Shown: positions 7,134 to 37,322 of the stretch, piece after piece | How positions within the stretch are numbered: the stretch's first letter is position 1 | Layout: each line of letters opens with the position of its first letter | DNA from: an uncultured Fibrobacterota bacterium | GTDB taxonomy: Bacteria > Fibrobacterota > Chitinivibrionia > Chitinivibrionales > FEN-1185 | Reading direction: 5' to 3' | Length of the DNA stretch: 38,323 nucleotides | NCBI GenBank assembly: GCA_963753345.1 | Contig: CAVWBU010000037.1 | Span: forward strand, 1-38,323 | Notes under the pieces: model-generated | Seen by the model: the letters and a program-made list of their open reading frames with translations, nothing else | What the model was told of the DNA's origin: nothing | Databases searched by the model: none | Translations under genes and position numbers: made by a program

Positions 7134-7253
7134 CTCTTCGTGGGTGCCCCCACACAGGTGCTTGATTCTTGCAACTGCTCCCTCTAGGGGTGCACCCAGG
7201 AGGGGGTGACGGAGGACGCCGAAGCCGGCCGTAGGCAGGGGGAAACTTCCCCC
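7134..7253 (+). repeat. Family-2 structured intergenic repeat, copy A
   Basis: CTCTTCGTGGGTGCCCCC...TTGATTCTTGC...CTAGGGGTGCACCCAGGAGGGGG...AGGGGGAAACTTCCCCC; homologous to 20899-21054(-), 25601-25739(+) and 36568-36717(-). Confidence 0.85.
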
Positions 7254-7363
7254 ACATAATTATTTCTTGTTTTTGACAAATGACTTAATGGCCTCGCTCG
7301 GGTGTGCGACCGCGCTCGCGCGCGGCCGGAACCCGGAGGCAGAACCGTTTCGCGGCACCCACT

Positions 7364-8605
7364 TTACTCCCCCTGTTTTATCGACGGTGCAAAATCCGCG
7401 TTGTATCTTTTCCGCAGGAAACCGACGTTGAGCGTGAATCCGATTTGGAAGCTTTGGCTTGAAGGCTCGAGAAAAGCCGCTTTTATCGAAGTGAAACCGT
7501 CGGATATCGTCGCCGAATCGGTGTTGCTTTTTCCGAAACCGTATAACAGGCCGAACAGCGCGAACGTGAGCGACGTTCGCTCGTTTACCCGCACCTGAAG
7601 AAACGTTTCGAGCCTGTACGATACGCGATTGCCCAGGGTCACGGCAGGATAGTCGTAGGTGATGCTCGAGCTCGCGTCGCTCTGCTCGATTTGCATCTGG
7701 CCGAAAAACATGAACTCGATGCGCGGCTCGATGCCGAGTACGGTCCTGGAAGAAATGGGATGCGCAATTATCGCTCCCAGAGGAACGCTTAACCAGTAAT
7801 AGGTTTCAGACGAGCTGACCGAGGAACCGGACTCATCAGGCGACGTTGAGGATTGGGTCATGTCGCGAATCCACAGCTTGCCGTCCAGACCAGTATACGC
7901 CACGCAGCTCCATCGCGCGGGTGAAAACGTGTAGCCGATGTCGCATGATCCGAACAGGAAAATGTTGCTCTTCTGCATGACGACCGGCGTAAATTCCAGG
8001 ACAGCCCCGGTCGACCCGCTGTCGTAGGCTCCTGCCGAGGAGCCGTCATAGGTGTTGTTCAAACCCAGCAGCAGGGCGACCTGGGGGCGGATGAACAAAT
8101 TCGGTTTCCGCAGGTAATGGGGCATCTGCAGCCGGACGCCGACCACAGCTCCGTACTCGCTGCTCTTGGGAGTTCCCACGACAACAGGAGATGTCCCGTA
8201 CTGATCACGATACCACTGGACCATCTGGCTTACGTCGATGTTCTCGTTATAGTAGAAATAGCTGAGCCACGGCCCCACCGAAATGACTTTCCTGTAGTCG
8301 AACAAGGAAAAATCCGGCAGACGCCCCGGCGGCGTCTCTGTATGTGCCGCGACTGGCTCCTCAGGCTCGACCGCAGGCTGCGTCGGCAGGGCGCTCGCGG
8401 CGGAATCGGCTTCAGGTTTCGCCGGTGACGGCGCGCGGGCCGCGGTGTCTGACGATTTCGGCGTCAGCTCGATAATGGTCGGCAGGTCATTTGATGCCGA
8501 ATCGGCCCGTGAAAGATTCCTTCGGCCGCCCTGTTGGGCAATGCCTGACAACACAAGAGCAATGACCATCGAGCATGCGGTTGTCGCATGACGCGCATGG
8601 AGCAT
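7364..8605 (-). CDS. Hypothetical secreted protein, probable outer-membrane beta-barrel
   Basis: 413-aa ORF with a signal-like N-terminus, a Pro/Ala linker, then alternating aromatic/hydrophobic strands (e.g. FQIGFTLNVGF). Confidence 0.6.
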   Translation of the reverse strand: MLHARHATTACSMVIALVLSGIAQQGGRRNLSRADSASNDLPTIIELTPKSSDTAARAPSPAKPEADSAASALPTQPAVEPEEPVAAHTETPPGRLPDFSLFDYRKVISVGPWLSYFYYNENIDVSQMVQWYRDQYGTSPVVVGTPKSSEYGAVVGVRLQMPHYLRKPNLFIRPQVALLLGLNNTYDGSSAGAYDSGSTGAVLEFTPVVMQKSNIFLFGSCDIGYTFSPARWSCVAYTGLDGKLWIRDMTQSSTSPDESGSSVSSSETYYWLSVPLGAIIAHPISSRTVLGIEPRIEFMFFGQMQIEQSDASSSITYDYPAVTLGNRVSYRLETFLQVRVNERTSLTFALFGLLYGFGKSNTDSATISDGFTSIKAAFLEPSSQSFQIGFTLNVGFLRKRYNADFAPSIKQGE

Positions 8606-8751
8606 GGGGCTTCCTCTGGTGAAGCGGTTCGGCGGCGGTGTGAGGAACTTGCGGAAAGAACACGAACAGGCGCAGCCTTGACTTCAGAAAATATTCTAAG
8701 ATGCGTGCGGTTGAAAAGCAAGGGAAAAAGTGGCCGCAGAGCCCGGCAGAA

Positions 8752-9258
8752 TCATCGCTGCTTGCTCCTCGCCTTCTCCCACCACAGTCCGGCAAACTCC
8801 CACAGCATTTTTGCATCCTTGACAAACACAAGGTGGGCTCCTTCCATCCCGCACAATGCCCTGCACACGATTTCCACCCTGTGTTTTCCCGCGATGTTCA
8901 CCTGCGAAAAATCCGATTCCGCAACCGGGTATGCGGCCCGGTTGAAGTCCACGCCGCAGTCCGAGGCAAGGGACGAGGCTGCATTGTCGGGCGCAACCGT
9001 GCGGAACTTCTTTTCGTACGGGTAATACCCGTCGGGCCGGACCATGAAGTTCTTCGTGTCCTTCAGCAGTTTCCTGTCGCTCCTGACATCGGCCATGAAA
9101 TAGCGGAACGTTTTCCCCTGGATGAGCGAAACGAGGTGCGCGGAGTCTCGATTGATAATGCACCGGATGACCGAATGCGTGAGCGTATCGTAGTTGTCAA
9201 CCGCGAACGCGCCGACTGCGGCGAAAAGCGTTGCAAGAAACATTAGACGGAATTGCAT
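8752..9258 (-). CDS. Hypothetical secreted protein
   Basis: 168-aa ORF with signal peptide MQFRLMFLATLFAAVGAFA and a GGGGAG RBS upstream. Confidence 0.65.
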   Translation of the reverse strand: MQFRLMFLATLFAAVGAFAVDNYDTLTHSVIRCIINRDSAHLVSLIQGKTFRYFMADVRSDRKLLKDTKNFMVRPDGYYPYEKKFRTVAPDNAASSLASDCGVDFNRAAYPVAESDFSQVNIAGKHRVEIVCRALCGMEGAHLVFVKDAKMLWEFAGLWWEKARSKQR

Positions 9259-9310
9259 GGCGGTACTCCCCCGTGGAATTGGATTCTGCTGCCTTCAACG
9301 TTCAACCTCG

Positions 9311-10207
9311 TTACCCGCGCGAACTCGGGGCCCCGAACATGCCCGAACCAGAGCCGGCGCCGTGCCCGAACAGCCCTTCGGAGCGCTCCGCGGCCGCTCC
9401 GAACCTCTTTTCGCTCGCGCCGGGAGCCAGATTGTGGCCGCCTGCGGACATGCGGAGGAGTTCGTCGGTGGCTGGGGCCGTCCAGTCTTTGTCATTAACG
9501 GAACTCGGGCCGGACTGCGGTACGTTGACAACATTGGAACGGACTGCGAGCAGAAACTTTCCTTCCGGCGTGAGAAACCCGCATTCGACGATGTAGGTCC
9601 TTGCGGATTCAGGAACGCGGATGTACCAGTTGCTGGCGAATTCGTTGATCTCGATGTCGACGTAGCTTAGCGCGTTGGTGCCGTCGTAATTAATGCCGGT
9701 GACGTCGCACAGGCGCAAGAGTTTCTTTGCCGAGGCAAACGCCGCCTCTCCCATCCTGCTCTTGAGCGAATCCCTCGTCTTCCCGGTTATTTCCCAGTAG
9801 ACAAACAGCCATTCCGGGTCGCGCGGCATGGCGCGCATGTAGGTTTCGTTGTAGGAATCGGGAACGTCGGCCCGGAAGAAGTACTTGGGGCCCGACATTC
9901 GCGGTTTTGCAGGTGCCGCTTGAGACTGGCGTATTGATGATTGCCTGACGTTTACGGGAATCGGCACGGATGCGTCCGGAGACGCTTTTGTCATCGATCT
10001 TTTCACAACGGGCGCAACCGATTTCTTTATCAACTTCCGTTTCGGGGGCTCCCGTCTGGGCGCAGCAGGCTTTTGTGCCGGACGCGGCTTCTTTGATTTT
10101 GCCGCCGCCTTCGGAGGGCGTGAAGGGATGGGTTTCTTCCTGATTGACATCGATGAAATTTTTACGGCACGTTTTCTTTTCGAAGTCATGGATTTTTTCT
10201 TTGCCAT
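9311..10207 (-). CDS. DUF4912 domain protein with Lys/Pro-rich N-terminus
   Basis: PDSYNETYMRAMPRDPEWLFVYWEI...LRLCDVTG...NWYIRVP....Y.VECGF......RSN.V matches the DUF4912 pattern. ATG 10207 is preceded by GGGAGG. Confidence 0.8.
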   Translation of the reverse strand: MAKKKSMTSKRKRAVKISSMSIRKKPIPSRPPKAAAKSKKPRPAQKPAAPRREPPKRKLIKKSVAPVVKRSMTKASPDASVPIPVNVRQSSIRQSQAAPAKPRMSGPKYFFRADVPDSYNETYMRAMPRDPEWLFVYWEITGKTRDSLKSRMGEAAFASAKKLLRLCDVTGINYDGTNALSYVDIEINEFASNWYIRVPESARTYIVECGFLTPEGKFLLAVRSNVVNVPQSGPSSVNDKDWTAPATDELLRMSAGGHNLAPGASEKRFGAAAERSEGLFGHGAGSGSGMFGAPSSRG

Positions 10208-10362
10208 AGCCAGCCTCCCTATTTGAGCAGAGCGGGGCAGCACCACAACGGTGTGCTGTTCACATCCGGCAATCAAACGCTCGCCATCTTCCTAGGAACT
10301 CACTTAGAAATTAAATAGCGACGCATCGGAGGACAATGCCTATTTGTGATTTGGTTCAGGCC

Positions 10363-11520
10363 CTACTCCCCTGCCGCGGCGCCCTTGATAAGAGCGAGCG
10401 CGATCTCGTTGCGCTGGATCTGGTTCGTGCCCTCGTAGATCTGGGTGATTTTGGCGTCGCGCATCCGCTTTTCCATGGGATATTCGCGCATGTAGCCGTA
10501 GCCGCCCATCACCTGCACCGCGTCCACCGTAACCTTCATGGCGGTGTCGGAGCAGAACAACTTGGTCATGGCCGACTCCTTTGAGAACTTCTTTTCGCCT
10601 GCGTCAATGGTCCTTGCGGTGGCGTACATCAGGGCGCGCGCAGCTTCAACCTGGGTCGCCATGTCGGCGAGCATGTGCTGAATCGCCTGGAACGACGAGA
10701 TGGGAGTGCCGAACTGTACGCGCTCGCGGGAATATTTCACCGCTTCTTCGAGAGCGCCCGCGGCAATTCCCAGCGCCTGCGCACCCACGCCGGGACGCGA
10801 ATAGTTGAGCGTGTTGATAGTCACAATGGCGCCCATGCCCTCGCGCGAGAGCAGATTCGCCTTGGGTATTTTGCAGTCCTGAAACACGAGTTCGGTAGTG
10901 CTTGACGCGCGGATTCCCATTTTGTCCTCGTGCTTGCCGAAGGTGAATCCCGGCGTGCCTTTTTCCACGATAAACGCGCTGATGCCGCGCGCGCCCTTTG
11001 CAGCGTTGGTCTTGGCCATAACCGTGTATATCTCCGCATTTTCACCATTGGTGATCCACTGCTTCGTGCCGTTTATCACGTACTGGTCTCCCTGAAGCAC
11101 CGCGGTCGTTTTCATGCCCAGCGCGTCGGAACCGGCATTCGCCTCGGTGAGACCGAAGGCAGCGAGCTTCTTTCCAGCTGCGATGTCGGGAAGGTATTTC
11201 TTCTTCTGTTCCTCGGTGCCGAACAGAAGGATGGGAAACGTGCCGAGCGCCGTGGCCGCGATGGCGAGTGAGATGCCGCCGTCCACCTTCGACATTTCCT
11301 CAACCGCAAGGCAAAGGTCAAGCACACCGCCGCCAAACCCGCCGTATTGTTCCGGAATGTAAAGCCCGCACAAGCCGGCCTCAGCGGCGGCTTTCACCAC
11401 GTCCCAGGGAAAAATGCCGTCCCGGTCGTAATGCTCGCGGACCGGAAGGATCTTCTTGTGCGCGAGCTCCCGTGCGGTATCAACGATCATCTGCTGTTCT
11501 TCGGTGAGAAACCAGTTCAT
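10363..11520 (-). CDS. Acyl-CoA dehydrogenase (short-chain/butyryl-CoA type)
   Basis: AFGLTEANAGSDA, INGTKQWITNG, EDKMGIRAS, RVQFGTPI, QVMGGYGY..EYP, KITQIYEGTNQIQR. Confidence 0.95.
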   Translation of the reverse strand: MNWFLTEEQQMIVDTARELAHKKILPVREHYDRDGIFPWDVVKAAAEAGLCGLYIPEQYGGFGGGVLDLCLAVEEMSKVDGGISLAIAATALGTFPILLFGTEEQKKKYLPDIAAGKKLAAFGLTEANAGSDALGMKTTAVLQGDQYVINGTKQWITNGENAEIYTVMAKTNAAKGARGISAFIVEKGTPGFTFGKHEDKMGIRASSTTELVFQDCKIPKANLLSREGMGAIVTINTLNYSRPGVGAQALGIAAGALEEAVKYSRERVQFGTPISSFQAIQHMLADMATQVEAARALMYATARTIDAGEKKFSKESAMTKLFCSDTAMKVTVDAVQVMGGYGYMREYPMEKRMRDAKITQIYEGTNQIQRNEIALALIKGAAAGE

Positions 11521-12311
11521 GGGATCGGTGCTCCTTTACTTTGAGTGATTGTTTCCCTGCTGTATGCCTTGAGCGCCTCGCGCGCGGCGTTCTGCTCCGC
11601 GAGCTTCTTGTTGGGGCCCGCGCCTTCGCCGAGCGCCACGCCGCCCACTTCGATGCGGACGGTGAATTCCTTGGCGTGTTCGGGCCCGACGGCCGACACC
11701 ACCCGGTACCGCGGAATGCCGAACCCGTCCCGCTGGGAAAGTTCGAGGATCCTGCTCTTGTAATTGATGTTGCTCTCGTCCCGCAGAAACGCGTCGATGC
11801 CGCCGAACAGGAAGCGCGACAAAAACCGTCTCGCCTTGTGAAGCCCGCCGTCAAGGTATAAAGCGCCCAAGAGCGCCTCGAAGGCGTTGGACAGGATCGA
11901 CATGCGCTCCTTGCCGCCCGACTTGCGCTCCGAGTACCCGAAAATCATGTACTCGCCTATGTTGAGCGCATAGGCGATCTCGCCGAGGATCTTCCGGCTC
12001 ACCACCAGGGACTTTACTTTCGACAGCTGACCTTCGGACCTGGTGGGATACGCCTGGTACAGGTGCTCGGTGATAAGGCAATTGAGCACCGCATCGCCGA
12101 GGAACTCCAGCCGCTCGTTGGACATGAGGCCCTTCTTGTCGTCCGGGCCGACGCTTGACTTATGCGTGAGGGCGAGCGTGAGCAGGTCGGCGTCGCGGAA
12201 CCGGTAGCCGATTGCCTTCTGGAACGTTTCGACCGACGTCCGGCCGCGGTCCGGCTTTCGAAAGGGGAATATGAACCTGAGAAAGTCGCCTGGCCCGCTA
12301 CGCCGCTTCAT
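11517..12311 (-). CDS. rnc: Ribonuclease III
   Basis: ALTHKS, NERLEFLGDAVL signature, FEALLGALYLD, C-terminal dsRBD (NYKSRILELSQ...KKLAEQNAA). Probable start ATG 12311 overlaps the fabF end. Confidence 0.95.
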   Translation of the reverse strand: MKRRSGPGDFLRFIFPFRKPDRGRTSVETFQKAIGYRFRDADLLTLALTHKSSVGPDDKKGLMSNERLEFLGDAVLNCLITEHLYQAYPTRSEGQLSKVKSLVVSRKILGEIAYALNIGEYMIFGYSERKSGGKERMSILSNAFEALLGALYLDGGLHKARRFLSRFLFGGIDAFLRDESNINYKSRILELSQRDGFGIPRYRVVSAVGPEHAKEFTVRIEVGGVALGEGAGPNKKLAEQNAAREALKAYSRETITQSKGAPIP

Positions 12312-13545
12312 ACTTTGCGACAACCAGAGACACATTGTGGCCGCCGAAGCCGAAGGAGTTGCTCATGGCGTACCGCACGGTCCGCTTCACGGCGGTGTTC
12401 GGCGTGTAGTTGAGGTCGCACTCCGGGTCGGGGTCTTCGTAGTTGATGGTGGGGTGGACAATGTCACGGCACACGGCAAGCGTGGTCGCGACGAATTCGA
12501 TGCCGCCCGACGCGCCGAGCAGATGGCCCGTCATTGACTTTGTGGAACTGATGTTGATTTTCTGGGCGTATTCGCCGAACACCTTCTTGATGGCGATGGT
12601 CTCGAGCTTGTCGTTAAGCTCGGTGGAGGTGCCGTGCGCGTTGATGTAGTCGATGGCGGAAGGCTTCAGTCCCGCCGACGCAAGCGCCATGGCCATGGAG
12701 CGCTGGGCGCCCTCGCCGTCGGGAGACGGCGCAGTGAGGTGGAACGCGTCGCCGGTGGCGCCGTACCCGATAAGCTCGCAGTAGATTCGCGCCTTGCGCG
12801 CCTGGGCATGTTCGAGCGTTTCGAGCACGATGATCCCCGCGCCTTCGCCCATCACGAACCCGTCGCGCTTCTTGTCAAACGGACAACTGGCCTTCTGCGG
12901 ATGTTCGTTGCGCGTGGACAGCGCCTTGAGCGAGCAGAACCCCGCATAGGACAGCGGCGTGATGGCGGCCTCGGACCCGCCGCAGACCGCAACATCCATC
13001 ATGCCGGCCCTGAGCATGAGGAACGAATCGCCGATGGCATGGCCGGCGGAAGCGCACGCGCTCACCGCGCTGTAGTTCGGCCCTTTAAGCCCGTACCCGA
13101 TGGAAACCCTTCCGGCTGCCATGTCGGTTATCATCATGGGAATAAGAAACGGCGAAACGCGTCCCGGACCGCGTGAAATCAATTTGCTGTGTTCGCCTTC
13201 CAGCGTCCTGAGGCCGCCCACGCCCGAACCGATGACGGTCCCGATACGGGTGAGGTCTTCGCGTCCAAGGTCGAGCCCGGCGTCCTTTATCGCCTGGTCT
13301 GAGGCGACCATGGCAAAAAGGATGAAGCGATCGGTCCTGTTGACCTCTTTGAGGTCCACGAGGTTTCCGACGTCGAAGTTTCCCACCTCACCCGCTATCT
13401 TCGACGGGTAATTCGTTGTGTCGAACGTGGTGATGGGCCCGAGACCGGATTTTCCCGAGCACAAGGAGTCCCAGTACGTTTCCACGGTGTTGCCAATGGG
13501 ATTTATGGTCCCCAGGCCGGTGACCACTACTCGCTTCGAAATCAC
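12298..13545 (-). CDS. fabF: 3-oxoacyl-ACP synthase II
   Basis: RVVVTGLG, SACAS active-site Cys, YINAHGTST, STKSMTGHLLGA, SNSFGFGGHN. Confidence 0.97.
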   Translation of the reverse strand: MISKRVVVTGLGTINPIGNTVETYWDSLCSGKSGLGPITTFDTTNYPSKIAGEVGNFDVGNLVDLKEVNRTDRFILFAMVASDQAIKDAGLDLGREDLTRIGTVIGSGVGGLRTLEGEHSKLISRGPGRVSPFLIPMMITDMAAGRVSIGYGLKGPNYSAVSACASAGHAIGDSFLMLRAGMMDVAVCGGSEAAITPLSYAGFCSLKALSTRNEHPQKASCPFDKKRDGFVMGEGAGIIVLETLEHAQARKARIYCELIGYGATGDAFHLTAPSPDGEGAQRSMAMALASAGLKPSAIDYINAHGTSTELNDKLETIAIKKVFGEYAQKINISSTKSMTGHLLGASGGIEFVATTLAVCRDIVHPTINYEDPDPECDLNYTPNTAVKRTVRYAMSNSFGFGGHNVSLVVAKYEAA

Positions 13546-13565
13546 GGAGCTGCTTTCGTTGTTGG

Positions 13566-13799
13566 TTAGAGCTTCTTTTCGAGGTAGTCCGTGGCGTCCT
13601 TGACCGTGCGGAGCTTTTCGGCGTCCTCGTCAGGGATCTCAATGTCAAACGCATCTTCAAAAGCCATGATGAGCTCCACCTGATCGAGTGAATCCGCGCC
13701 AAGATCTTCGACAAATGAAGCCTGTGGCGTCACCTTGTCTTCCGAGACGCCGAGCTTCTCCGCGATAATCTGCTTAATCTTGGTTTCTTTCTCGCTCAC
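13566..13799 (-). CDS. acpP: Acyl carrier protein
   Basis: DLGADSLD phosphopantetheine motif; AAGGAG RBS. Confidence 0.97.
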
Positions 13800-13872
13800 A
13801 CTGAACTCCTTTCAAGAGTGTTAAGGATGTACTTGATGTTGTTTTCGTTCCTATAAAATGATTTTCCCCGCA

Positions 13873-14616
13873 TCACATTACAAGCCCGCCGTCAACCGCA
13901 AGCACCTGCCCGGTGATATAATCGGAGAGGCTTGACGCAAGAAAAAGAACCGTGTTCGCGACGTCGACCGGCTGTCCGAGACGCTGCATGGGAATCTGCG
14001 ACGCAAGCTTCTCCCTGTCCTGCAGGGAAAGCCTGTCGGTCATAGCCGTCTGGATGAACCCCGGCGCCACGGCGTTCACCTGGATGTTGCGGCTTGCGAA
14101 TTCCCGCGCCAGCGACTTGGTGAGACCGATGAGCCCCGCTTTCGACGCCGAATAGTTTGCCTGACCCGCGTTGCCGATGATGCCCACCACCGATGCGATG
14201 TTCACCATCTTGCCGCTTCTTGCCTTCATCATGGACCGGGCGGCTTCTTTGCAGAACAGGAATGCGCTCTTGAGGTTGACGGAGAGGACCAGGTCCCAGT
14301 CCTCCTCCTTCATGCGCACGATAAGCCCGTCCCGCGTGATGCCCGCGTTGTTGACAAGAATATCGAGCGTGGGAAACGCGGCCCCGAACGCCGAAACCGC
14401 ATCCGCGACGTCGGAGGCCTTGGCAACGTCGCAGCAAAGGGAAACGGAGGTCCGGCCCAGCGCCTGCACTTCCCCGGCGGTGGACTGCGCCGTTGCGGCG
14501 TCGAGGTCGCACACCGCAACGTTGGCACCCGCCTTCGCAAGCGTAAGCGCCACTGCCCTGCCGATGCCGCGGCCCGCCCCGGTCACGAGAGCATTCTTGC
14601 CAGCCAATTGTATCAA
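13873..14616 (-). CDS. fabG: 3-oxoacyl-ACP reductase
   Basis: TGAGRGIG, NNAGITRD, YSASK SDR motifs; located in the fab cluster. Confidence 0.96.
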   Translation of the reverse strand: MIQLAGKNALVTGAGRGIGRAVALTLAKAGANVAVCDLDAATAQSTAGEVQALGRTSVSLCCDVAKASDVADAVSAFGAAFPTLDILVNNAGITRDGLIVRMKEEDWDLVLSVNLKSAFLFCKEAARSMMKARSGKMVNIASVVGIIGNAGQANYSASKAGLIGLTKSLAREFASRNIQVNAVAPGFIQTAMTDRLSLQDREKLASQIPMQRLGQPVDVANTVLFLASSLSDYITGQVLAVDGGLVM

Positions 14617-16596: not shown

Positions 16597-16597
16597 C

Positions 16598-20898: not shown

Positions 20899-21054
20899 AG
20901 GGGGAAGTTTCCCCCTCGCTGCGGTCCGGTCACGCTGCATTGTAAACAGAATTTCCTGAAGCGTGACCGTTCCTCCGCTACCCTCTCCAGGGTGGCCCCC
21001 AAGTAGGAGTATATGCAAGAATCAAACACCTGCGCGGGGGGCACCCACGAAGAG
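20899..21054 (-). repeat. Family-2 structured intergenic repeat, copy B
   Basis: Reverse complement reads CTCTTCGTGGGTGCCCCCC...TTGATTCTTGC...TTGGGGGCCACCCTGGAGAGGG...AGGGGGAAACTTCCCCCT. Confidence 0.85.
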
Positions 21055-21137
21055 TCGTTGCGCCGGGTGCTCTTCTTGCTTTGTCACTTTGTTACTTTGT
21101 CAACCGTCTCTCTTCTTGACAGGAGTTTAACTATCCA

Positions 21138-21971
21138 ATGAAAAAAACTGCCCGTAGCTTTATCCAACAGAAATCCGCCGCGTCCCCTATTGCCATGCTC
21201 ACGGCCTACGATTGCCCCACGGCGCGCATCATTGACGAGTGCGGGGTCGATGCCGTTCTCGTGGGCGACAGCGTGGGCGACACGGTCCTGGGGTACGAAG
21301 ACATCAAGGACGTCACCATGGACGACATGGTGCACCATACCGCCGCGGTCGCACGAGGTGTGAAAAACGCCTTTGTGATAGGCGACATGCCCTACCGTTC
21401 GTACGCGACGCCCGCTTGCGCGCTCGCGAATGCAAAAAGGCTTGTCAAATGCGGAGCGCAGGCGGTAAAAATGGAAGGCGGCGCGAAACTCGCACCCATC
21501 GTGCGTTCCTTGCGCAGAAACCGCATCAGCGTGTGCGGCCACATTGGCTACCTTCCGCAATCCGCACCACGACCGCGCGTGGTGGGCAAGACGATTGCCG
21601 AGGCGAAGGCACTTGTCGCCGACGCCCTCGCGCTTCAGGACGCCGGCGTCTTCATGATCGTTCTGGAACTTATCCCCGCGGAACTCGCCCGCGCCGTGAC
21701 ACGGCTTCTCCGTGTCCCCACCATCGGCATCGGCGCCGGGCCGTATTGCGACGGCCAGGTGCAGGTGTTCCACGACATGGCCGGGCTTTCGCCAGTGATA
21801 TTCCGCCATGTCAAGGTGTTTGCAAAAGGGAAAGAGGCGCTTTCGGCGGGCGTATTGCAGTATGTGAAGGAAGTGAAGAAGGGCACGTTTCCGACCATTC
21901 AAAACGCTTCATCGATGGCCGAAGATGTGGAATGTGAGCTTGAGAAATGGATTTCGAATAACTATAAATAA
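21138..21971 (+). CDS. panB: 3-methyl-2-oxobutanoate hydroxymethyltransferase
   Basis: MLTAYD, LVGDS, GDMPYRSY, VKMEGG, GHIG, PTIGIGAG..CDGQV. Confidence 0.97.
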   Translation: MKKTARSFIQQKSAASPIAMLTAYDCPTARIIDECGVDAVLVGDSVGDTVLGYEDIKDVTMDDMVHHTAAVARGVKNAFVIGDMPYRSYATPACALANAKRLVKCGAQAVKMEGGAKLAPIVRSLRRNRISVCGHIGYLPQSAPRPRVVGKTIAEAKALVADALALQDAGVFMIVLELIPAELARAVTRLLRVPTIGIGAGPYCDGQVQVFHDMAGLSPVIFRHVKVFAKGKEALSAGVLQYVKEVKKGTFPTIQNASSMAEDVECELEKWISNNYK

Positions 21972-23557: not shown

Positions 23558-23592
23558 GCGCGGCCTCCTATTCTTGTACGGTCTTGCCCCCT

Positions 23593-23664
23593 CTGCCCAG
23601 GCGCGCGACAGATTGGGAGATCACTCCCCGATGGTAGGTTCCATCCCAAGCGCCAGTCGTAGTA
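23593..23664 (-). promoter_or_regulatory. ZMP/ZTP (pfl) riboswitch
   Basis: Minus strand ACGACTGGCG-CTTGG-GATGGAACCTACCATC-GGGGAGTG...GTCGCGCGCCTGGGCA contains the pfl hallmarks: GACUGGCG, the P2 hairpin, GGGGAG and a 3' CGCCUGGGCA able to form the GGCG/CGCC pseudoknot. It lies ~35 nt upstream of glyA, a typical ZTP target. Confidence 0.88.
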
Positions 23665-23755
23665 TAATAATAAACAGTAGACAAAAATAATATAAGAGCA
23701 TGGACATTTTTATTAGATTACATGAGAAGAGGGATTGGAAGAAATACAAAAAAGA

Positions 23756-24192: not shown

Positions 24193-25341
24193 ATGAAAAA
24201 TTCACTTCTTTTTCTCCTACTCCTTCTCCTCACCACGTCTGCATCTGCCGACATCCTTCAATTCGAAGGCATTGTCCCGCCCGACGTGGACAGGGCTGCG
24301 ATGAACGGCGAGTATTACCGTCTCTACCGCCTCGTCGCGCCGGAGCGGCGGCCCGACGCTGCGCCGCTGCGCATCGTCTACTATTCCGATAAGTCAACAG
24401 TGAATTACGGCGGCATGCTGCCCGAATGGGGCGGCGGCGGAACCATAGGCGGCAACCTCATCGTGGTGCCCACCACGTTCAAGCCGTTTCTCGACCAGAG
24501 CTTTGCCCAGGTGACAAGGCACGAGCTCGTGCACGCCGTGCTTGCGCGGGCCTTTCCGGGCCTCGACATCCCGCGCTGGTTCCATGAAGGCGCGGCCATG
24601 ACGTTGTCCGGCGAGCTTTCGTTCAACGAGGACGTGGTCGTGTCCAAGGCGATTTTTACGGGCAGGCTCATGCCGCTGTCGTCCATAGACTCGGTGAACG
24701 CCTTCGGCCGCAACCGCGCCGATCTTGCCTACAGCCAGGCCCACCTTGCCGTGATGTTTCTCATCGAGCAATACGGCATTGAATCGATTGCCGAAATCCT
24801 GCAATCGGCCCGGAAGACCGGCTCCTTCTGGCGCGGGATGCGCAATGTTTTGTCGCTGTCCCCGCAGGAATTCGAATTTGCCGTCAACAAAGAAATTTCT
24901 TCGCGCTACAGGTTCGTTTTCCTCTTTGCCGATTATTCGGCGTTCTGGGTCGCCATCGCTTTTCTGTTTCTTGTCGCGGCAGGCGTCGCCATCGTGCGGA
25001 AACAGAGAAAGCTCGCGTTGATGGAGCAGGAGGAAAAGGAGGAAGCAGGATCGGGCGGGCCACCGGATACGGCACCACCGCCTCCCGCAAAAGCCGGAAC
25101 AGACGCTCCCCTGCCCGATCCCGCAGGACCGCAGGAGGCCGGGCCTCAAATTGACGAAGAGGAATATGCGGATGAATACTACGATGATGACGATGAATAT
25201 TACGATGAAGAAGACGACGACGACTACATTCTCGCCGACGGCGTGGAGCTGGAAGATGATGATGAGATTGAAGACGAAGAGGATGACGAGAATACGAATG
25301 ACGGCGAAGATGAAGATTCCGGGAAGCCACCTTCACATTAA
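24193..25341 (+). CDS. Peptidase MA-family (gluzincin) metalloprotease with TM helix and acidic tail
   Basis: Signal peptide; HELVH zinc motif followed by PRWFHEGAA; AYSQA; TM segment; Asp/Glu-rich C-terminus. Confidence 0.82.
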   Translation: MKNSLLFLLLLLLTTSASADILQFEGIVPPDVDRAAMNGEYYRLYRLVAPERRPDAAPLRIVYYSDKSTVNYGGMLPEWGGGGTIGGNLIVVPTTFKPFLDQSFAQVTRHELVHAVLARAFPGLDIPRWFHEGAAMTLSGELSFNEDVVVSKAIFTGRLMPLSSIDSVNAFGRNRADLAYSQAHLAVMFLIEQYGIESIAEILQSARKTGSFWRGMRNVLSLSPQEFEFAVNKEISSRYRFVFLFADYSAFWVAIAFLFLVAAGVAIVRKQRKLALMEQEEKEEAGSGGPPDTAPPPPAKAGTDAPLPDPAGPQEAGPQIDEEEYADEYYDDDDEYYDEEDDDDYILADGVELEDDDEIEDEEDDENTNDGEDEDSGKPPSH

Positions 25342-25354: not shown

Positions 25355-25500
25355 TTGGGCGTTTCCCTCGCTGCGCTCGGGCCGGTCTCCCTCCGGGCTC
25401 GGCTATTCGCGCTCGTTGCCGCCTGCCACGCAGGGCCCACGGCCCGTGGTCAGGCGGCAATGCGCTCCAGCGCACCCTGCGGTCCACCTAACGCGCGGCA
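25355..25500 (+). repeat. Family-1 structured repeat, copy 4
   Basis: TTGGGCGTTT...GGTCTCCCTCCGGGCTCGGCTATTCGC...GGTCCACCTAACGCGCGGCA. Confidence 0.88.
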
Positions 25501-25600
25501 GAAGAAAACGTATTGAGTCAAGGTAAAACTCTTCGCCATCTGGAATTCCAAGGCAATCCGTTAGAGACTTTCCCTTCTTCCGCATTCATCAATCCACAAT

Positions 25601-25739
25601 TCTTCTCGGTGCCGCCCGCAACTAAAGTTTCTATCTTGCGAATCAACTAGCCTTGGGCGGCTACCCACGAGGGGGTGTGCCCCAAGACCCCGCAGGCCAA
25701 GGGCCGAGGAGGCTTGGGGCCAGGGGGACACTTCCCCCT
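25601..25739 (+). repeat. Family-2 structured repeat, copy C
   Basis: CGGTGCCGCCC...TCTTGC...TTGGGCGGCTACCCACGAGGGGG...AGGGGGACACTTCCCCCT. Confidence 0.78.
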
Positions 25740-30073: not shown

Positions 30074-30147
30074 AGCCTTGTCAGATCGCTCACTCATCAA
30101 CCTATTTCAGGCCATATTCCGGTTGTCTCAGCATCAACTTGATCCTA

Positions 30148-31542: not shown

Positions 31543-31647
31543 TGCTCGGCTTTCTCTGAGACGTTGGATGGGACAAGTGCCAAATGATAAAATAGTTCCA
31601 GTTTTGGTTGTGTCCAAAATAGTAGTAAATATAACTGCGGTTTTGGC

Positions 31648-31699
31648 GGGGGAAGCTCAGCCTGTCTCAAAACTCAAGAGAAGATCTGGGCGCCCCGCC
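31648..31699 (+). repeat. 52-bp direct repeat, copy 1 (solo TIR-like motif plus family-1 5' end)
   Basis: gggggaagctcagcctgtctcaaaactcaagagaagatctgggcgccccgcc matches 36496-36547 at 50/52. Confidence 0.9.
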
Positions 31700-32100
31700 G
31701 AAGACGGCGGCGGGACCTGTTCCGCCCTTCCTGTTGGGCGGGGTCTTCCTTCCGGGCTCGGCACAAGGCAAGCGACACAATAATGAAGCGCGAAGCGCTC
31801 TTACCATACCTTGGGGAACGAAGTGACAATGCGCTATTGCGCACCCTTCAGTCCAACCTGGCGCATGCGCATAGGACAGCTGCTTGGTCGAACGTTCCTG
31901 ATAATCAGCATGTGATTGTTGACAAAAGCGATTGAACCCTACTACGCGATCGCCGCGAAGCGGCATACAACTGAGGTTGCGTTGCGAGCCGGAGCGCCGG
32001 AGGCGCGGAGACCACGCGCGAAGCGCGCCCGAAGGGTGCGAAGCATGAACGGGCGACGCCGCGCGAGCGCAAGTCGAGCGCACCAGGCGCGCCCCTTTGC

Positions 32101-32178
32101 TGGAGGGGGGAGCGGAGGACACCGCAGGCCAAAGGCCGAGGAGGCCGCAGCGAGGGGGAAACGCATAGCGGTGCCCCC
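32101..32178 (+). repeat. Family-2 repeat, 3' half only
   Basis: Shares CGCAGGCCAARGGCCGAGGAGGC with copy C and CCGCAGCGAGGGGGAAAC with copy B. Confidence 0.65.
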
Positions 32179-32229
32179 ACCATCACAATTTATTAATTAT
32201 TAGGGGGTGAGCGGAATTCTTGATTCCGA

Positions 32230-32259
32230 TTGACAAAATTCTCATTTTCGTGATATATT
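32230..32259 (+). promoter_or_regulatory. Candidate sigma70 promoter for the 32345 gene
   Basis: TTGACA-N18-TATATT with an extended -10 TG, in an AT-rich context ~85 nt before the ATG. Confidence 0.55.
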
Positions 32260-32344
32260 TAAAGGACACAACTATAATTATAGATAGTCAAACGTAAGGG
32301 GATGCGGCCCAATTATTGCGGCAGAGAACAAATCGGGGCTTCCG

Positions 32345-34111
32345 ATGAAGATTACACATGCTCTTTGGACGTGCGTCCTCAGCGCATTCGCTGTAATGAA
32401 CACAGGCGCAAGCGCGCAGGTCTCACCCGCGTATCCCCAGCCCGTGCTTTCTCCGGCCGCGCCAACGCAGAACGACAGCGTGGCGTTGTGGCTCATTCTG
32501 GGACAATCGACAAGCTCCTGCGTGCCCGCCTACACAAGCTCGTTCAAGATCACCCAAACCAGCAGGTTTATATGCGCGCGTGCGCCGTGCCCGCAGAACT
32601 ACTCAATCGCCGTCTCCTATTCCCAGAACCCCCAGCTGCTGCTCGGACGGCCGTGCGTGCTTACGGCCACGAATTACGGGCCTCTGTTCTCATTCGGAAA
32701 GCTTGGCGCAGGCAATTACACGGTTGTCGACAGCACCGGCGGCGGCGCGGTCACGGCGTTCACGGTAACGGCAAACGCCGTTTCGTACGCGGTGACCGGC
32801 ACCGTGCTCAAGGATCCCGGCATCCTCACCGTGGTTTCCCCGATTCCGAAAGCGACGGTGTATCTGAAAACCGCCTCGATCTCGCCCATCCTGGCCGCGC
32901 AGGCGATCGCGCTGCCGCTGTACGCCATCATCGACTCCGCAGCCTCCGACGCCTCGGGAAATTTCTCTTTTGCAAACGTTGTTCAGGGCTCGTACGACCT
33001 CGGTTTTTCCGCGGCCGGGTACCAGGCCCGCGACATTTCGATCACCGTGCCGCCGGACACGCTTGTTAGCGTCATGCTGCTTGCGGCAACCGCCCTGTGC
33101 TCCGTGGCCGGCATTGTCAAGGAATCGCAATGCCCGGCGCCCGGCCTCGGGCTGCCGTGCAGCCTGATTCCGGTGCAGGGATGCAGCGTTACGGTGAGCC
33201 TGCCCATTTTCATAATGCCGCTTGCAAAGCAATCGGCGCTCATTGCCGGCCAAATGTACACCGCCGTGACCAACGCCGCCGGCACATACGTCATCGACAG
33301 CGTTCCCGTCACGTACAACGACAGAACCGTGACCCTGCTCGCGTCGATGGCCGGCTACGCGCAGGAAACCAGCCAGGCCATGCTGTACGCCAACAGTTCC
33401 GTCACTGTCAATTTTGTGCTGCAGGGCGCTTACTCGAACCCCGAAACCACCACGGTGAGCGACGTGCAGTTCATCGCAGCCACCGAGAGGCCGCACTATA
33501 CTCTTGGCGATTCCATCAAGGTGCGCTACACGGTCAAAAACAACTCGATGGCAACGGTCGTGTACGATTTCTCCTCCGGCTGCCAGTTCGATATGGTTGC
33601 CATGGCCCCGCCCATGGACACCGTGTACTGGTACGGCCGGCTCCTTGCCTGCACCATGATGGCGACGCAGATCTCGCTTGCGGCCGGCCAATCGAAGACA
33701 ATGGACTACCCGGCATTTGCCGACAACGATACGTCGGGCAGCCTTGCGATAACCGCGAAAATGATCGGTTACGACAGGAGCGCTTCGACGGTCATTGTGC
33801 CGGTTGGAAAGACCACGGCTGCGGCGCCTCTTTCCCACAAAACCGGGGACGCAAAGAAACAGGTCATCTCCTATTCCCCGTCCACAAAGACCCTGTCGCT
33901 CAACATCGCCAGAAGCCAGTTTGTGTCGGTCTCGGCGTATGTGGTGAGCGGCAAAAAGATTTCCCAGCTTTCCACGCGCAAGTACCTCACCGCAGGCACC
34001 CACGCCATCCACCTCACCAACGCATCGCTGTCGAACGGGATCATTATTTTCAGAGTAGACGGTGAGGGATTCTCGGCGGTCAAGAGAGTCAATTTGATTG
34101 AGGGTAGATAA
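32345..34111 (+). CDS. Secreted protein with carboxypeptidase-regulatory-like beta-sandwich domains, a BsuPI-like domain and a C-terminal T9SS/FlgD-like domain
   Basis: Signal peptide; SDASGNFSF..V..GSY.L.FSA.GY and TNAAGTYVID repeats; YTVKNNS...YDFSSGCQFD...CTMMATQISLAAGQS resembles BsuPI; C-terminal VSVSAYVVSGKKI...GTHAI...GIIIFRV. Confidence 0.7.
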   Translation: MKITHALWTCVLSAFAVMNTGASAQVSPAYPQPVLSPAAPTQNDSVALWLILGQSTSSCVPAYTSSFKITQTSRFICARAPCPQNYSIAVSYSQNPQLLLGRPCVLTATNYGPLFSFGKLGAGNYTVVDSTGGGAVTAFTVTANAVSYAVTGTVLKDPGILTVVSPIPKATVYLKTASISPILAAQAIALPLYAIIDSAASDASGNFSFANVVQGSYDLGFSAAGYQARDISITVPPDTLVSVMLLAATALCSVAGIVKESQCPAPGLGLPCSLIPVQGCSVTVSLPIFIMPLAKQSALIAGQMYTAVTNAAGTYVIDSVPVTYNDRTVTLLASMAGYAQETSQAMLYANSSVTVNFVLQGAYSNPETTTVSDVQFIAATERPHYTLGDSIKVRYTVKNNSMATVVYDFSSGCQFDMVAMAPPMDTVYWYGRLLACTMMATQISLAAGQSKTMDYPAFADNDTSGSLAITAKMIGYDRSASTVIVPVGKTTAAAPLSHKTGDAKKQVISYSPSTKTLSLNIARSQFVSVSAYVVSGKKISQLSTRKYLTAGTHAIHLTNASLSNGIIIFRVDGEGFSAVKRVNLIEGR

Positions 34112-34139
34112 AGGAATAGTAATTGCTGTTGGTGGGAGA

Positions 34140-34299
34140 TGGGCGTTCCCCTCGCCTTCGTCAGGACTCGGCGCTCGGGTCGGCCGTCCATACGGTCTCG
34201 GCCTCCGGCCTCGGGCTGCCTGCCACGATGGCGCTCCGGGCCGTGGCCAGGCAGCACCGCGCTCCAGCGCGGCCTCCAGTCCTTGCGAACGCAGCGGCA
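34140..34299 (+). repeat. Family-1 structured repeat, copy 5
   Basis: TGGGCGTTCCC...GGTCTCGGCCTCCGGCCTCGGG...GCACCGCGCTCCAGCGCGGCCTCCAGTCC...AACGCAGCGGCA. Confidence 0.8.
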
Positions 34300-34379
34300 A
34301 CCGAATTCTGTTAAGTCAGTGATTCATCCGCGCCAATCGGCATCTGCAATGAATCAGTCAAGACTTTCTCTTTGAGATC

Positions 34380-34403
34380 TTCAACTCTTCAACTTATCAA
34401 CTC
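34380..34403. repeat. 8-mer tandem repeat (TCAACT core) x3
   Basis: ttcaactc ttcaactt atcaactc; same motif as at 7080 and 36964. Confidence 0.55.
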
Positions 34404-34567
34404 TTCCTTTGCACCCAGGGACAGCGGTTGGTCCGGGAAGAATCATTAGACAAATGCCCAATTCCTATCTACCTAGCCATGGCGACCGGCAGCGTCCACA
34501 ATTACCATATGCTTGACTCATTAAAGCTTCTCTGGAAGTATTTCGTGTGTATTCCAGGTGGCGCGAA

Positions 34568-34705
34568 GGCGTTATTTCTTGACAGAGTGGCCTGATGCCG
34601 AAGGCCGACGACCTTAGAAGCACCCGAAGGGGCGGACCGGAAGCGATTGCCGGCCGACCCCAGGCGGAGCCGCATGTCGTGCGACTCTGCCTGGGGGAAC
34701 GCCCA
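34568..34705 (-). repeat. Family-1 structured repeat, copy 6 (divergent)
   Basis: Reverse complement TGGGCGTTCCCCCAGGC-hairpin-GCCTGGGGTCGGCCGGCAAT...TAACGCC, just downstream of the GH64 stop. Confidence 0.65.
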
Positions 34706-34731
34706 TCTCTTTTGTAAAGATTTATTTAACT

Positions 34732-36273
34732 CTAGTACCCTACTGCTATCTCCAACCATTGTGCGTTGCCGCTCGCGATGTACGACGACCAATTGTTATA
34801 ATCGTCGTACGGGAAGGTGTATTGCAGGTGGAAAAAAGCACGTCGATGAATGAAATACCCATAGAAAGTACAAGGAGCTTTCTTGTAGTGATAATTCCAG
34901 TTATTCTGCTGGGCAGCGGTAAGATCCAGGACATGCCGGTATAAACCTGAGGATATCGCTCGGATCATTGATGCCGACACACGCTCCTACACCAGTCACG
35001 CCGCATTGCAGCCGCATATGCATCCCAGTAATGGGCCTGCGACCCGCCTGTCGAGAAATCCGGCGTCATACAAGGATTGGTAATCTTCCATGGTTTCGCT
35101 ATGTTCGCGCAGACATCCCACTCCTTGGGAACCTCGTTCATGAATTCGTCGAAGATCGACTGGCGCGTCTGGAAGAACATGGGGTAGATCTCACCCCGGA
35201 CAAGGTCTTTGGAGCCGTCCGTGCAGTGCAGGCGCATCGCCAAAGGCGTTCCAAACCAATCCACACGCGTCAGATTGCCGAGGTAGCTGGTGGCCCCGGT
35301 GTTGTGCTCTTCGAAGTCCCAGACCTGGTTAGCGGGCCGGAATGGCGATGACTTTGCCGCATTGTAGCCAACCATGATGTACAATCTTCCCGCATTGGTG
35401 GAGGGAGTGATGAGCGATTGACGTTGTCATGCAAACCGGTGTCCCGCCATCTCCGTTTGCCCAATAGATCAGACTGTCGGGAACCGCACCATTGGTTTTA
35501 TTGATGAGCTTGAAGACGAAGTGTCCTGCCGCTTTCGCAGCCGCCGATAATGCGGCCGTATCGCCCCAGAATGCTGCCGTGTCCCCGTCCCATGTATTAG
35601 TTTTTGTCAACACAAAATCGTACTGGCCCGTGGTCACGTCTATCGGCGTTACGCCGAGGGAATAGCCGGGCTCGGTCGCGTGAATCGTGTCCACGACCGC
35701 GGCAAGCTTTTTCAAACTTGCATGGAATTCCGGAGCGTTTTGGGCGGCAACTGCCGCGCCGCGCGAATACGGCTGCAGCTTGAAAACCGTGGAAACGCCG
35801 TCAATGGAAACGCGTACCACATAGAACTGCGAAGAAACGTCGCGCGTGTCGATGGTTACCGAATAGCTTCCATTCGCCTTTCGGGCGTTAACAAGATCTT
35901 TTACCAAACGTCCTGTTACATCGAACATGCTTATTCTCACCCATGCATTGTCCTGAGGCACGGAGAATACCAATTCCCTGCCCACCAAAATCGGATGCGA
36001 AAACACGTTTCCCAGCGGGCGTGAGCTTTCCTGGATCACATTTGTCTGGCAAGTTCCCGAACCAAGATGGTAATAGCCGGTTGAATCGGTGGTGGTATAA
36101 TACGGATCATTGCCCACGGCATCGATTAAGCTTTGTCACACTCAGCCTCACCAACGTATTGGTTAATGGTTTACCACTCTGGTCCCTGACAAAGCCGCAG
36201 ATGTTCACCGTGGTCTGGGAAAAAACCGTTCCCGCAATTACCGCCAGCAGCAGAAGACTGATTCGTGGTCTAT
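34732..36273 (-). pseudogene. Secreted GH64 beta-1,3-glucanase-like protein with an internal T9SS/FlgD-like domain; >=4 frameshifts and a defective start
   Basis: Fragments in successive frames: RPRISLLLLAVIAGTVFSQ (signal); VRISMFDVTGRLV...YVVRV (35329..36117); WDFEEH...GNLTRVDWFG.PLAMRL (34965..35384); YRHVL...Y..APC.FY...IH...YTFPYDD...SSYI...IAVGY* (34732..34980). These match GH64 motifs. Confidence 0.75.
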
Positions 36274-36495
36274 TTCACTCCCCCTTTTTTTGGTGTAGGA
36301 ACCACGTGATTCTTGAACCTGTTAATATTCTTTTCCGCCAGAACATTGTCGTGCGCTTTAAGCGATCAAATGAAGGTTGGACATGTCAATGCCCGACATG
36401 ATGCATCATGAGGAATTTACAATAAATTTTGATGAGAAGTGCAATAAAAAATAAGGATTCTATTTTAATTAAATTCATACATAGAAACTATCTCT

Positions 36496-36547
36496 GGGGG
36501 AAGTCCAGCCTGTCTCAAAACTCAAGAGAAGATCTGGGCGCCCCGCC
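36496..36547 (+). repeat. 52-bp direct repeat, copy 2
   Basis: 50/52 identical to 31648-31699. Confidence 0.9.
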
Positions 36548-36567
36548 AGGTTAAGAATGTTTTTCAT

Positions 36568-36717
36568 GGGGGGAAGGCTCCCCCTCGCTCCGGCCCGGCG
36601 CTCAAATTTTCAAAGTGCGGCTTATTCCGCGCCGGTCCTGCGCTGCCCCCTCCTGGGTAGCCCCCTAGAAAGTTGAGCGGCAAGAAAGAAACAGTGGCTG
36701 CGGGGGCACCGTGAGAA
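36568..36717 (-). repeat. Family-2 structured repeat, copy D
   Basis: Reverse complement CGGTGCCCCC...TTTCTTGC...CTAGGGGGCTACCCAGGAGGGGG...CGAGGGGGAGCCTTCCCCCC. Confidence 0.8.
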
Positions 36718-36747
36718 ATGTAGATTGCAGAATGAAGAAAAACTTGA

Positions 36748-36777
36748 TGTCATTGCGAGGAGGGAAACGACGAAGCA
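36748..36777 (+). repeat. Half copy of a GTCATTGCGAG-type palindromic repeat
   Basis: tgtcattgcgaggagggaaacgacgaagca resembles the widespread GTCATTGCGAGGAGCGAAGCGACGAAGCAATC repeat; no partner end seen. Confidence 0.45.
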
Positions 36778-37009
36778 CCATGACTACCACTGCATACAAC
36801 CCTACAGGAGTAGCCGCGTCCGCGAATCTCCGGTTGAATCAAGGGCAATCATGGGACACGAGCCTTCAGGGTATTTGCGCGCAAACAGTTATTATCATCA
36901 GTCAACCTGTCTTCGCGGCAATCGGAATACTCAATGAATGATCCGGGGGCTTTTCTGCGACTTCTCAACTCCTCAACTGCTCAACTTTGCATGGTCTGGT
37001 GGCCCCTTA

Positions 37010-37150
37010 GCAGGTTGTTGAAAAACTCAATGTTCACCCTTCGACAAGCTCAGGGCGAACGGAAAAGTGCTGAAATTTGCACAGAATGACCGTTCGTGGT
37101 GAGCCTGTCGAACCATGAACGGCATATGAACGACTTTTTCAACACCCTGC
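37010..37150. mobile_element. 141-bp MITE/REPIN-like element with TA target duplication
   Basis: Ends gcaggttgttgaaaaa / tttttcaacaccctgc; TA at 37008-37009 and 37151-37152; REP-like inverted core. Confidence 0.85.
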
Positions 37151-37322
37151 TAGAGAGAGTAGTTGCATGAATCAAGCGGTAGTGGTGGGGGGGGCACCCG
37201 CGCAAAAGTTGGACCCCATTGCATGCGCATTTTTTTGTTATATTATATGCAGCCGCAGTCGTTACGATTGTTCACCGGCATCGAGGAAATTTTCTTAACC
37301 TTAAATTACCGAGGGGGGTTCA

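Follow-up and report, generated by a model that had tools for sequence, protein, structure and literature searches.

Which element is the hairpin-forming repeat that recurs in the genome of an uncultured Fibrobacterota bacterium, and in what form would it act? The repeat, referred to here as Family 2, was first noticed on a single contig (CAVWBU010000037.1 of assembly GCA_963753345.1), whose 38,323 nucleotides (nt) constitute the window analysed here. Comparison of sequences and predicted folds suggests that Family 2 is a genus-specific, remodelled and expanded form of a non-coding element of 80-110 nt present in multiple phyla. This element travels between phyla, partly on plasmids. The initial annotation saw Family 2 only at the level of the window; the link to other phyla and to plasmids is new, as is one of the helices described below (P0).

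Both strands of the window were read, and all six copies reported in the initial annotation (four full, one partial, one interrupted) are present where it had placed them (Table 1). A strict regular expression derived from its details finds 196 copies in the genome as a whole (G000; 4.5 Mb, 55 contigs), a fragmented assembly which is 94% complete and has a contamination estimate of 4.8%. Covariance model R1, built from 64 copies, matches the four full window copies with E-values from 4e-45 to 1e-25, and it also matches every one of the 150 genomic candidates that were scored, which is well above chance level. To build another model, R2, only copies from outside the genus were used (46 in number); it recovers all four window copies (E 8e-8 to 2.6e-3) and at least 142 copies in the genome. 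Family 2 is a set of homologous, structurally constrained copies. They are not young: in the 196-copy set, the best identity of each copy to another copy has a median of 87%. The few near-identical copies are found on redundant small contigs with ordinary genes, namely those for a radical SAM protein, a metallo-beta-lactamase-fold flavoprotein, a class II tRNA synthetase and parts of ABC transporters. Small contigs C4, C5, C16, C38, C42 and C55 repeat stretches of larger contigs, complete with identical copies and flanks, which is probably due to strain heterogeneity or assembly redundancy.

Folding and alignments place a single long hairpin, H1, at the 5' end of Family 2. It is formed by the P0 helix, which joins the consecutive Gs of GAGGGGG to a pyrimidine run 5' of GGTGCC (CTCTTC and its variants), stacked on P1, the stem 1 of the initial annotation. 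On the 5' side of P0 the variation is between U and C alone, facing an invariant G. The change of stem sequence that had been described for P1, with GGTGCCCCC facing GGGGGCYACC in some copies and GGTGCCGCC facing GGCGGCYACC in others, is real (50 CG and 12 GC pairs in alignment A1). Within the large loop lies a further helix, P1b, whose sequence, read by eye, differs by sub-family (GAAGTT/AACTTC, ACAATG/CTTTGT, CAGGTGC/GCAACTG), and the apical loop beyond it retains CTTGC. P2 has a fixed base, UAGCG-GNA-GG-A-C ... G-G-CC-GNA-GCGA, containing a symmetric three-by-three internal loop with G and A flanking; alternatively, the base is of another type, either TRTGGGTGC/GCACCCYA or TRTGCCCC/GGGGCYA, and the distal part of the helix is unconstrained. 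P3 consists of GGGGGA, a four-base loop and UCCCCC. The TCTTGC loop motif, GAGRGGG, the variable hairpin and the terminal GGGGGA-N4-TCCCCC hairpin of the earlier description were each found in the copies. Loop types and P2 types are reshuffled among them, giving 142 combinations in 196 copies. A master copy enclosing a gene was also considered and rejected: 22 junction motifs have no P3 within 230 nt, and none of them holds an obvious gene.

Covariation was assessed in alignments that were fitted to the model and are biased toward structure, a bias which the controls with slid partners share only in part. Among 58 copies from this genome and its relatives, 95% of cells pair versus at most 63% when the partners are slid, and changes on both sides are seen in 21 of 33 pairs, including 10 of 10 in P2, with P3 almost invariant. 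The larger alignment, with 94 copies from several phyla, gives 93.8% versus at most 64%, with both-side changes in 14 of 20 pairs. Selection on structure, as proposed from the window copies, is supported by both alignments. The earlier emphasis on the TCTTGC loop as the conserved part does not hold, since the first hairpin is genus-specific and stands in place of a small GCGGGG/CCCCGC hairpin that the element has elsewhere. What stays invariant is GAGGGGG, the terminal hairpin and, in P2, the base including the GNA/GNA internal loop; it is with these 3' two-thirds that Family 2 belongs to the unit of 80-110 nt.

R1 matches 29 of 61 relatives. Four of the five congeners have at least 46-47 R1 matches each. 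The fifth (G003, 99% complete) has no match to R1, R2 or PF01797 and offers the genus a natural control that is free of the repeat. R1 matches in other families of the order are weaker (E 1e-13 to 1e-20). Across the Fibrobacterota, 86 of 151 genomes match R1, including 50 of the 55 members of family f10 and complete one-contig genomes. In the Fibrobacterota outside the genus the unit is shorter. The consensus outside the genus starts with GGGGCGUU and continues with the small GCGGGG/CCCCGC hairpin and AGAGGGGG; P2, with an unchanged base (UAGCGGAAGAC...GGCUGNAGCGA, including the GNA/GNA internal loop) and a distal part that is free, and an unchanged P3 (GGGGGA-N4-UCCCCC) follow. The R2 alignment omits the canonical small hairpin, and in it the 3' arm of the window H1 corresponds to the canonical 5' GGGGCGUU; Family 2 is therefore a derivative that lost the small hairpin and acquired H1 through a new 5' arm. 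At the sites orthologous to copy B, copy C and the partial copy, no element is present in relatives G002, G003, G004 and G005. Exact insertion boundaries at copies A and C were unobtainable owing to poor synteny, the relatives having other genes or an inverted B block (see below) at these places.

The core of the element extends well beyond the phylum. One genome per species was scanned with a 27-letter degenerate pattern made of the P2 base and P3, for which about 0.5 chance hits are expected by our own arithmetic, and at least 120 stretches were retrieved. Among the matches listed are Treponema (including isolate JC4), Spirochaetaceae, Leptospira ainazelensis, Tannerella, Zixiibacteriota, Nitrospirae, Collinsella, Ca. 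Ancillula, Fibrobacter, Chitinivibrionales, Chitinispirillia and a termite-gut 'Prevotellaceae' metagenome-assembled genome (MAG), with many matches at contig ends. MAG labels may be wrong; isolates and plasmids are independent of binning. Model-based counts amount to 66-69 copies in a Nitrospirae MAG, 39-54 in Treponema sp. JC4, 19 in Collinsella, 6 in L. ainazelensis and 3 in Ca. Ancillula. In the Nitrospirae MAG and in family f10 of the Fibrobacterota, the genes between copy pairs encode RloB with AAA_21, AAA_15, DUF4276 with AAA_21, PIN, AbiEi/AbiEii, DUF4143 and ORF6N, and constitute accessory cassettes. The best-scoring copy of Ca. Ancillula, which has a reduced actinobacterial genome, lies inside aroC, the gene for chorismate synthase (L281:693-1865, - strand), on the opposite strand and with the frame open. 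Read through, it is an insert of ~33 amino acids, in a place where the protein has ~40 residues versus 7 in the solved homologue 4ecd. A weak candidate match (E 2.6e-4) was also noted in gyrB (L295:166-2406, - strand), whose ATPase domain is ~40 residues longer than the Pfam profile.

A BLAST search of plasmids yielded 15 matching records, from Sphingobium, Sphingomonas, Tardibacter, Sphingopyxis, Magnetospira, Caulobacter, Agrobacterium, Granulicella and Treponema saccharophilum; phage sequences gave no match to the element. Five of seven plasmid loci have the element with its + strand opposite to a run of establishment genes that all point one way, at a distance of 90-600 nt upstream of one of these genes. 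The types of gene in these runs are those for single-stranded DNA-binding protein (SSB), ArdC/zincin, LPD29, toprim, ParB-N and toxin-antitoxin systems. Thus, the element is found between ssb and a zincin/ArdC-like gene in Sphingobium pCFD-1-1, upstream of ardC and beside a RepB primase gene in Granulicella pACIX903, between ssb and an LPD29 gene and beside toxin-antitoxin genes in S. baderi pDE3, upstream of an establishment gene in the Magnetospira plasmid, and 93 nt upstream of a toprim gene in the Caulobacter plasmid.

Within the genus, the usual company of Family 2 is another repeat. This B block is a distinct, GC-rich, multi-hairpin repeat of ~170-200 nt (GGGCGTTCCCC ... CCTAACGCGCGGCA ... 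TTCAGTCAA), with a core located at most 450 nt upstream of 153 of the 196 copies (median 131 nt). Its start, GGGCGTT, is also the start of the canonical core element, and its reverse strand has a conserved TTGACT. The B block is commoner than Family 2, with ~528 pattern hits in the genome, some of them probably due to chance, and Family 2 follows only 141. At least one TYAAC unit is found within 100 nt upstream of 148 of the 196 copies and at least two units upstream of 118; the units form a tandem tract of 7-8-nt repeats, mainly TTCAACN and at times of the GTGACAAAG or AATCCACA types. Tandem tracts of 7-8-nt units adjoin the element in several phyla, the unit being lineage-specific (TTCAACN here, CACTAAT, TAGTAAC, GTTGAC/TTTTGAC and CTTCAATA). 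The nearest relative carries a B block without Family 2 at an orthologous site, and the modules are therefore separable. When the repeat-free congener G003 was queried with a piece of the window spanning a B block, a single match was obtained, in the flanking gene. The composite of B block, tract and Family 2 fits tightly in gene gaps; on either side, the median distance to a stop codon is ~30 nt.

Orientation within these gaps is biased, although the counts are approximate since the gene calls are crude (longest open reading frames (ORFs) with a codon-score filter). Of 187 cases, 127 have the Family 2 3' end pointing towards the 3' end of a gene on the opposite strand. In co-directional gene gaps, the element is opposite to the genes 79 times versus 22 times in the same sense, and this antisense bias is present on both skew-defined strands (36:7 and 18:7). 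Some stretches have co-oriented copies in all successive gene gaps, for example five within 8 kb on contig C31. A replication-strand bias was rejected as the source of the pattern, given that the orientation tracks gene direction and not GC skew; skew is a weak proxy in a fragmented assembly.

Taken together, the range of copy numbers from 0 to ~200, the empty orthologous sites, the separable modules and the insertion in aroC indicate gain or loss at the DNA level: the element inserts into or is lost from DNA, with 0 to ~200 copies within one genus. As to which strand is folded, the evidence is mixed and leans towards the + strand. In P0, G-U wobbles outnumber A-C mismatches by 108 to 2, versus 26 to 10 in the remaining helices of the same alignment and 34 to 10 in the cross-phylum alignment. 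When the whole element is folded, the + strand is more stable in 150 of 196 copies; for P2 alone, it is favoured in 129 versus 41. The fixed purine-rich junctions exist on the + strand only.

We tentatively favour, with a confidence somewhat short of even, a mobile, single-strand-active element that would most likely act as single-stranded DNA (ssDNA). The active form would be the folded single-stranded nucleic acid of the + strand, and its conserved purine-rich junctions may be recognised by a host polymerase, a primase or another single-strand-binding protein. The plasmid copies, upstream of SSB-, ArdC- and toprim-type genes and with the + strand as template, would have the geometry of single-strand initiation (ssi) signals or of leading-region ssDNA promoters. 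In leading regions, the direction of the genes for SSB, anti-defence proteins, methylases and toxin-antitoxin systems is such that the transferred strand is transcribed, from promoters formed by folded ssDNA (Frpo/ssi) (PMC11541004, citing Masai and Arai 1997). The plasmid geometry and the antisense bias of the genome studied here match the leading-region orientation described there. In this genus, the element has accumulated in gene gaps, usually downstream of the B block and the heptamer tract and with the + strand mostly opposite to the genes. Its role may possibly be that of an ssDNA initiation signal. A bolder form of this proposal, which we consider doubtful, is that the core represents an unrecognised cross-phylum ssi class, at which priming or transcription would start on folded ssDNA only, carried by conjugative and other mobile elements and loose in ~200 chromosomal gaps of one genus, where the folded strand would mostly be the template. 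If true, one structured sequence of 80-110 nt would be common to distant phyla and plasmids almost letter for letter, outside Rfam and the searched literature. The adjacency to SSB and ArdC genes would then offer a testable idea of how expression or replication starts from incoming single strands in plasmids outside the enterobacterial models, and the ~200-copy expansion would be a natural experiment on the chromosomal effect of such a signal. The element would also account for assembly breaks at gene gaps and for spurious ORF calls across them.

Several observations weigh against an element acting as ssDNA. In the remaining two of the seven plasmid loci, it and its neighbouring genes share one sense (T. 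saccharophilum pTS1, and Tardibacter pHSL1, where CopG-RelE lies 140 nt downstream), and the identity of the plasmid template strand with the transferred strand is deduced from gene orientation alone. Outside the genus there is no antisense bias: 59 loci divide into 19 (+,+), 9 (-,-), 11 (+,-), 7 (-,+) and 13 at a locus edge. No mimic of a -35/-10 promoter is visible in the GC-rich hairpins, and the element therefore does not look like a promoter of the Frpo type. The presence of ~200 copies between chromosomal housekeeping genes is unexpected for a conjugation signal. No mobilising enzyme was found in searches for PF01797, TnpB and small GIY-YIG genes. With respect to the folded strand, the alignments used for the wobble counts were fitted to the + strand model, and H1 without P0 is more stable on the - strand (141 versus 48).

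A structured RNA, either cis-acting or stand-alone (a stabiliser of untranslated regions, a terminator, an insulator, a processing site or a hitherto undescribed small ribozyme), spread with gene cassettes and by recombination, is a possible explanation, though one we incline against; the DNA copies would then be no more than the genes of this RNA. The near-invariant junctions and internal loops across phyla, together with covarying stems and a distal P2 and a P1 loop of free length, would suit such an RNA, as would the location of copies ~30 nt from stop codons, the pyrimidine-rich sequence after P3 and, outside the genus, the more frequent placement in the sense of the upstream gene. Toxin-antitoxin and defence cassettes, which lie between copy pairs, are also the usual company of small self-cleaving ribozymes. 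However, no Rfam family matches, ribozyme classes included: the window searched against Rfam 15 at the gathering threshold yielded only a ZTP riboswitch elsewhere, and E-value searches with copies from G000, other Fibrobacterota families and other genera gave only chance-level matches to the element (E at least 0.35, far below gathering), the only strong matches being tRNAs elsewhere in the loci. The initial annotation had not been able to name a family, and the Rfam searches bear this out. The literature searched, whose coverage leaves most subscription journals outside, contains no account of the motif strings of the element or of such repeats in Fibrobacterota, Chitinivibrio or Fibrobacter/Treponema. 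Furthermore, since Family 2 is mostly antisense in this genus, a + strand RNA would need its own promoter; no clear -10 box was recognised by eye, no promoter scan having been made, and most P3 copies are without a true U tract. The in-frame copy in aroC and the spread from 0 to ~200 copies within the genus are a better fit to mobile DNA.

Mobility on DNA might also suit a selfish repeat of the REP (repetitive extragenic palindromic)/BIME or NTS type, dependent for its movement or maintenance on a dedicated transposase or single-strand nuclease that recognises the hairpins (whether a RAYT, a GIY-YIG protein like Ssn or an unknown enzyme), which we regard as unlikely. Such a repeat would agree with the mosaic of loop and P2 types, with A, B and tract modules that occur together or apart, and with intergenic copies in both orientations that are gained and lost among congeners. 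P1 with its fixed flanks also resembles in form the hairpin-plus-flank repeats of Ssn nucleases (PMC11893778); however, the published consensus of the Ssn-related motif (SRM), as given there, is not recognisable by eye on either strand. Partner enzymes do not follow the element either. The initial annotation had pointed to RAYT and IS200/IS605, but PF01797 (Y1 HUH, RAYT) has no match in G000 or in its nearest relative G001, despite dozens to hundreds of element copies in each, and although 49 of 61 relatives do have it, its occurrence among them is unrelated to that of the element. No PF07282 (TnpB) match exceeds the cut-off in G000, G107, G155, G157 and G154, and no long-range split copies around a gene, as in IS200/IS605 PATE or omega-RNA, were detected. 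The small GIY-YIG loci of G000, G107 and G155 have no flanking copy, and such genes were not found in two carrier genomes, Treponema sp. JC4 and Collinsella (G157 and G154). The age of the copies also speaks against this type of repeat, and we know of no REP family with near-identical sequence across phyla. REPs are short (~20-40 nt) palindromes with a conserved stem sequence. A REP-type palindrome was rejected for Family 2, a unit of 80-190 nt with three to four helices, in which the stems covary and the junctions are fixed. A place among the miniature inverted-repeat transposable elements was likewise rejected: the ends of the element are not mutual inverted repeats and its flanks are without a consistent duplication, whereas the 141-nt insertion in one window copy has both. 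Integron-like attC sites marking cassette boundaries are highly improbable. Direct or convergent copy pairs do bracket genes for PIN, AbiEi/AbiEii, RloB with AAA_21 and DUF4276 with AAA_21 in other genomes, and G000 has gene runs with a co-oriented copy in each gap. Yet the R''/R' boxes of attC (RYYYAAC ... GTTRRRY) are not visible by eye in the consensus, no single imperfect hairpin unites both ends, the bracketed genes of G000 are housekeeping genes, and both orientations are present.

The features of the window are collected in Table 1. Copy B is located 93 nt upstream of a divergent gene (21138..21971, + strand). The partial copy is followed by a second, H1-like hairpin, GGTGCCCCC...GGGGGTGAGC. 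In the interrupted copy, the 5' arm and loop are at 37198-37151 (-) and the 3' arm, GGGGCCACC, at 37006-36998 (-). The 141-nt insertion between them (37010-37150, -) has terminal inverted repeats, GCAGGGTGTTGAAAAA ... TTTTTCAACAACCTGC, and TA at both sides; its inner part (GTTCGCCCTGAGCTTGTCGAAGGG-like) has 13 occurrences in the genome. A ZMP/ZTP riboswitch (RF01750) is found at 23588-23670 (-), with 46.8 bits, over the gathering score. A third repeat is distributed genome-wide: a hairpin, CCCCTCTCC-N3-9-GGAGAGGGG, often with CCTCACCCC before it. Its motif is palindromic, and 98 two-strand hits therefore correspond to roughly 50 sites.

Table 1. Family 2 copies and associated repeats in the window, with E-values for the two covariance models.
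Feature	Position	Strand	Composition and context	R1 E-value	R2 E-value
Copy A	7134-7253	+	P0 5' arm CTCTTC; H1 GGTGCCCCC...GGGGTGCACC; GAGGGGG; short P2; P3 GGGGGAAACTTCCCCC	4e-42	8e-8
Copy B	20900-21054	-	long P2; preceded by tandem tract, no B block	4e-45	1.6e-6
Copy C	25600-25738	+	stem variant GGTGCCGCCC/GGGCGGCTACC; type II P2 TGTGCCCC...GGGGCCA	1.2e-25	2.6e-3
Copy D	36568-36717	-	full copy	3.8e-40	3.2e-7
Partial, rearranged copy	32088-32186	+	GGAGGGGGG, P2, 5' half of P3, then H1-like hairpin	1.3e-9	0.047
Interrupted copy, H1 only	36998-37198	-	first hairpin alone, divided by 141-nt insertion at 37010-37150	0.0013 (at 37151-37184)	
B block before copy A	6870-7035	+	GGGCGTTCCCC...CCTAACGCGCGGCA...; B core 6994-7007		
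Heptamer tract (TTCAACN)n	7084-7119	+	between B block and copy A		
GTGACAAAG-type tandem tract	~21071-21104		precedes copy B		
B block before copy C	25357-25530	+	core 25487-25500; begins 15 nt past the stop of gene 24193..25341		

The element can be set beside several known systems. REP, BIME and REPIN sequences are, like it, interspersed, intergenic and hairpin-forming, form a mosaic of modules and occur in both orientations; REP/BIME copies number in the hundreds, the same order as here. Unlike REPs, the element is without a RAYT, is 3-5 times longer, has three helices, conserves its unpaired junctions and not its stems, and is common to several phyla. The NTS/SRM repeats of Ssn nucleases (PMC11893778) resemble it as hundreds of hairpins with fixed non-palindromic flanks that cluster near particular genes and act as ssDNA, as the element would; they differ in their consensus, and ssn-like genes are neither flanked by the element nor found in the two carrier genomes searched. 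Integron attC sites are structured, lie at the boundaries of cassettes and are active as single strands, the strand that folds being the one opposite to the cassette genes; the element would be similar in this, but it has three separate hairpins instead of one, shows no R and L boxes, and encloses housekeeping genes between its G000 copies. Rickettsia palindromic elements are small structured repeats that can lie in frame within conserved protein genes and are known from one genus only. The copy in aroC is similar to them; the difference is that one in-frame case was verified here and that the great majority of copies are intergenic. Frpo/ssi sequences (PMC11541004) are non-coding, strand-specific, folded as ssDNA, present in several copies per element and located upstream of SSB, anti-restriction and toxin-antitoxin genes, on their template strand, features that the element would share. 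The regulatory regions searched for Frpo measure 50-350 bp (PMC11541004), versus ~85 nt for the element, which is GC-rich and made of three short hairpins with no visible -35/-10 mimic. Unlike Frpo/ssi, the element is also present in tens to hundreds of chromosomal copies.

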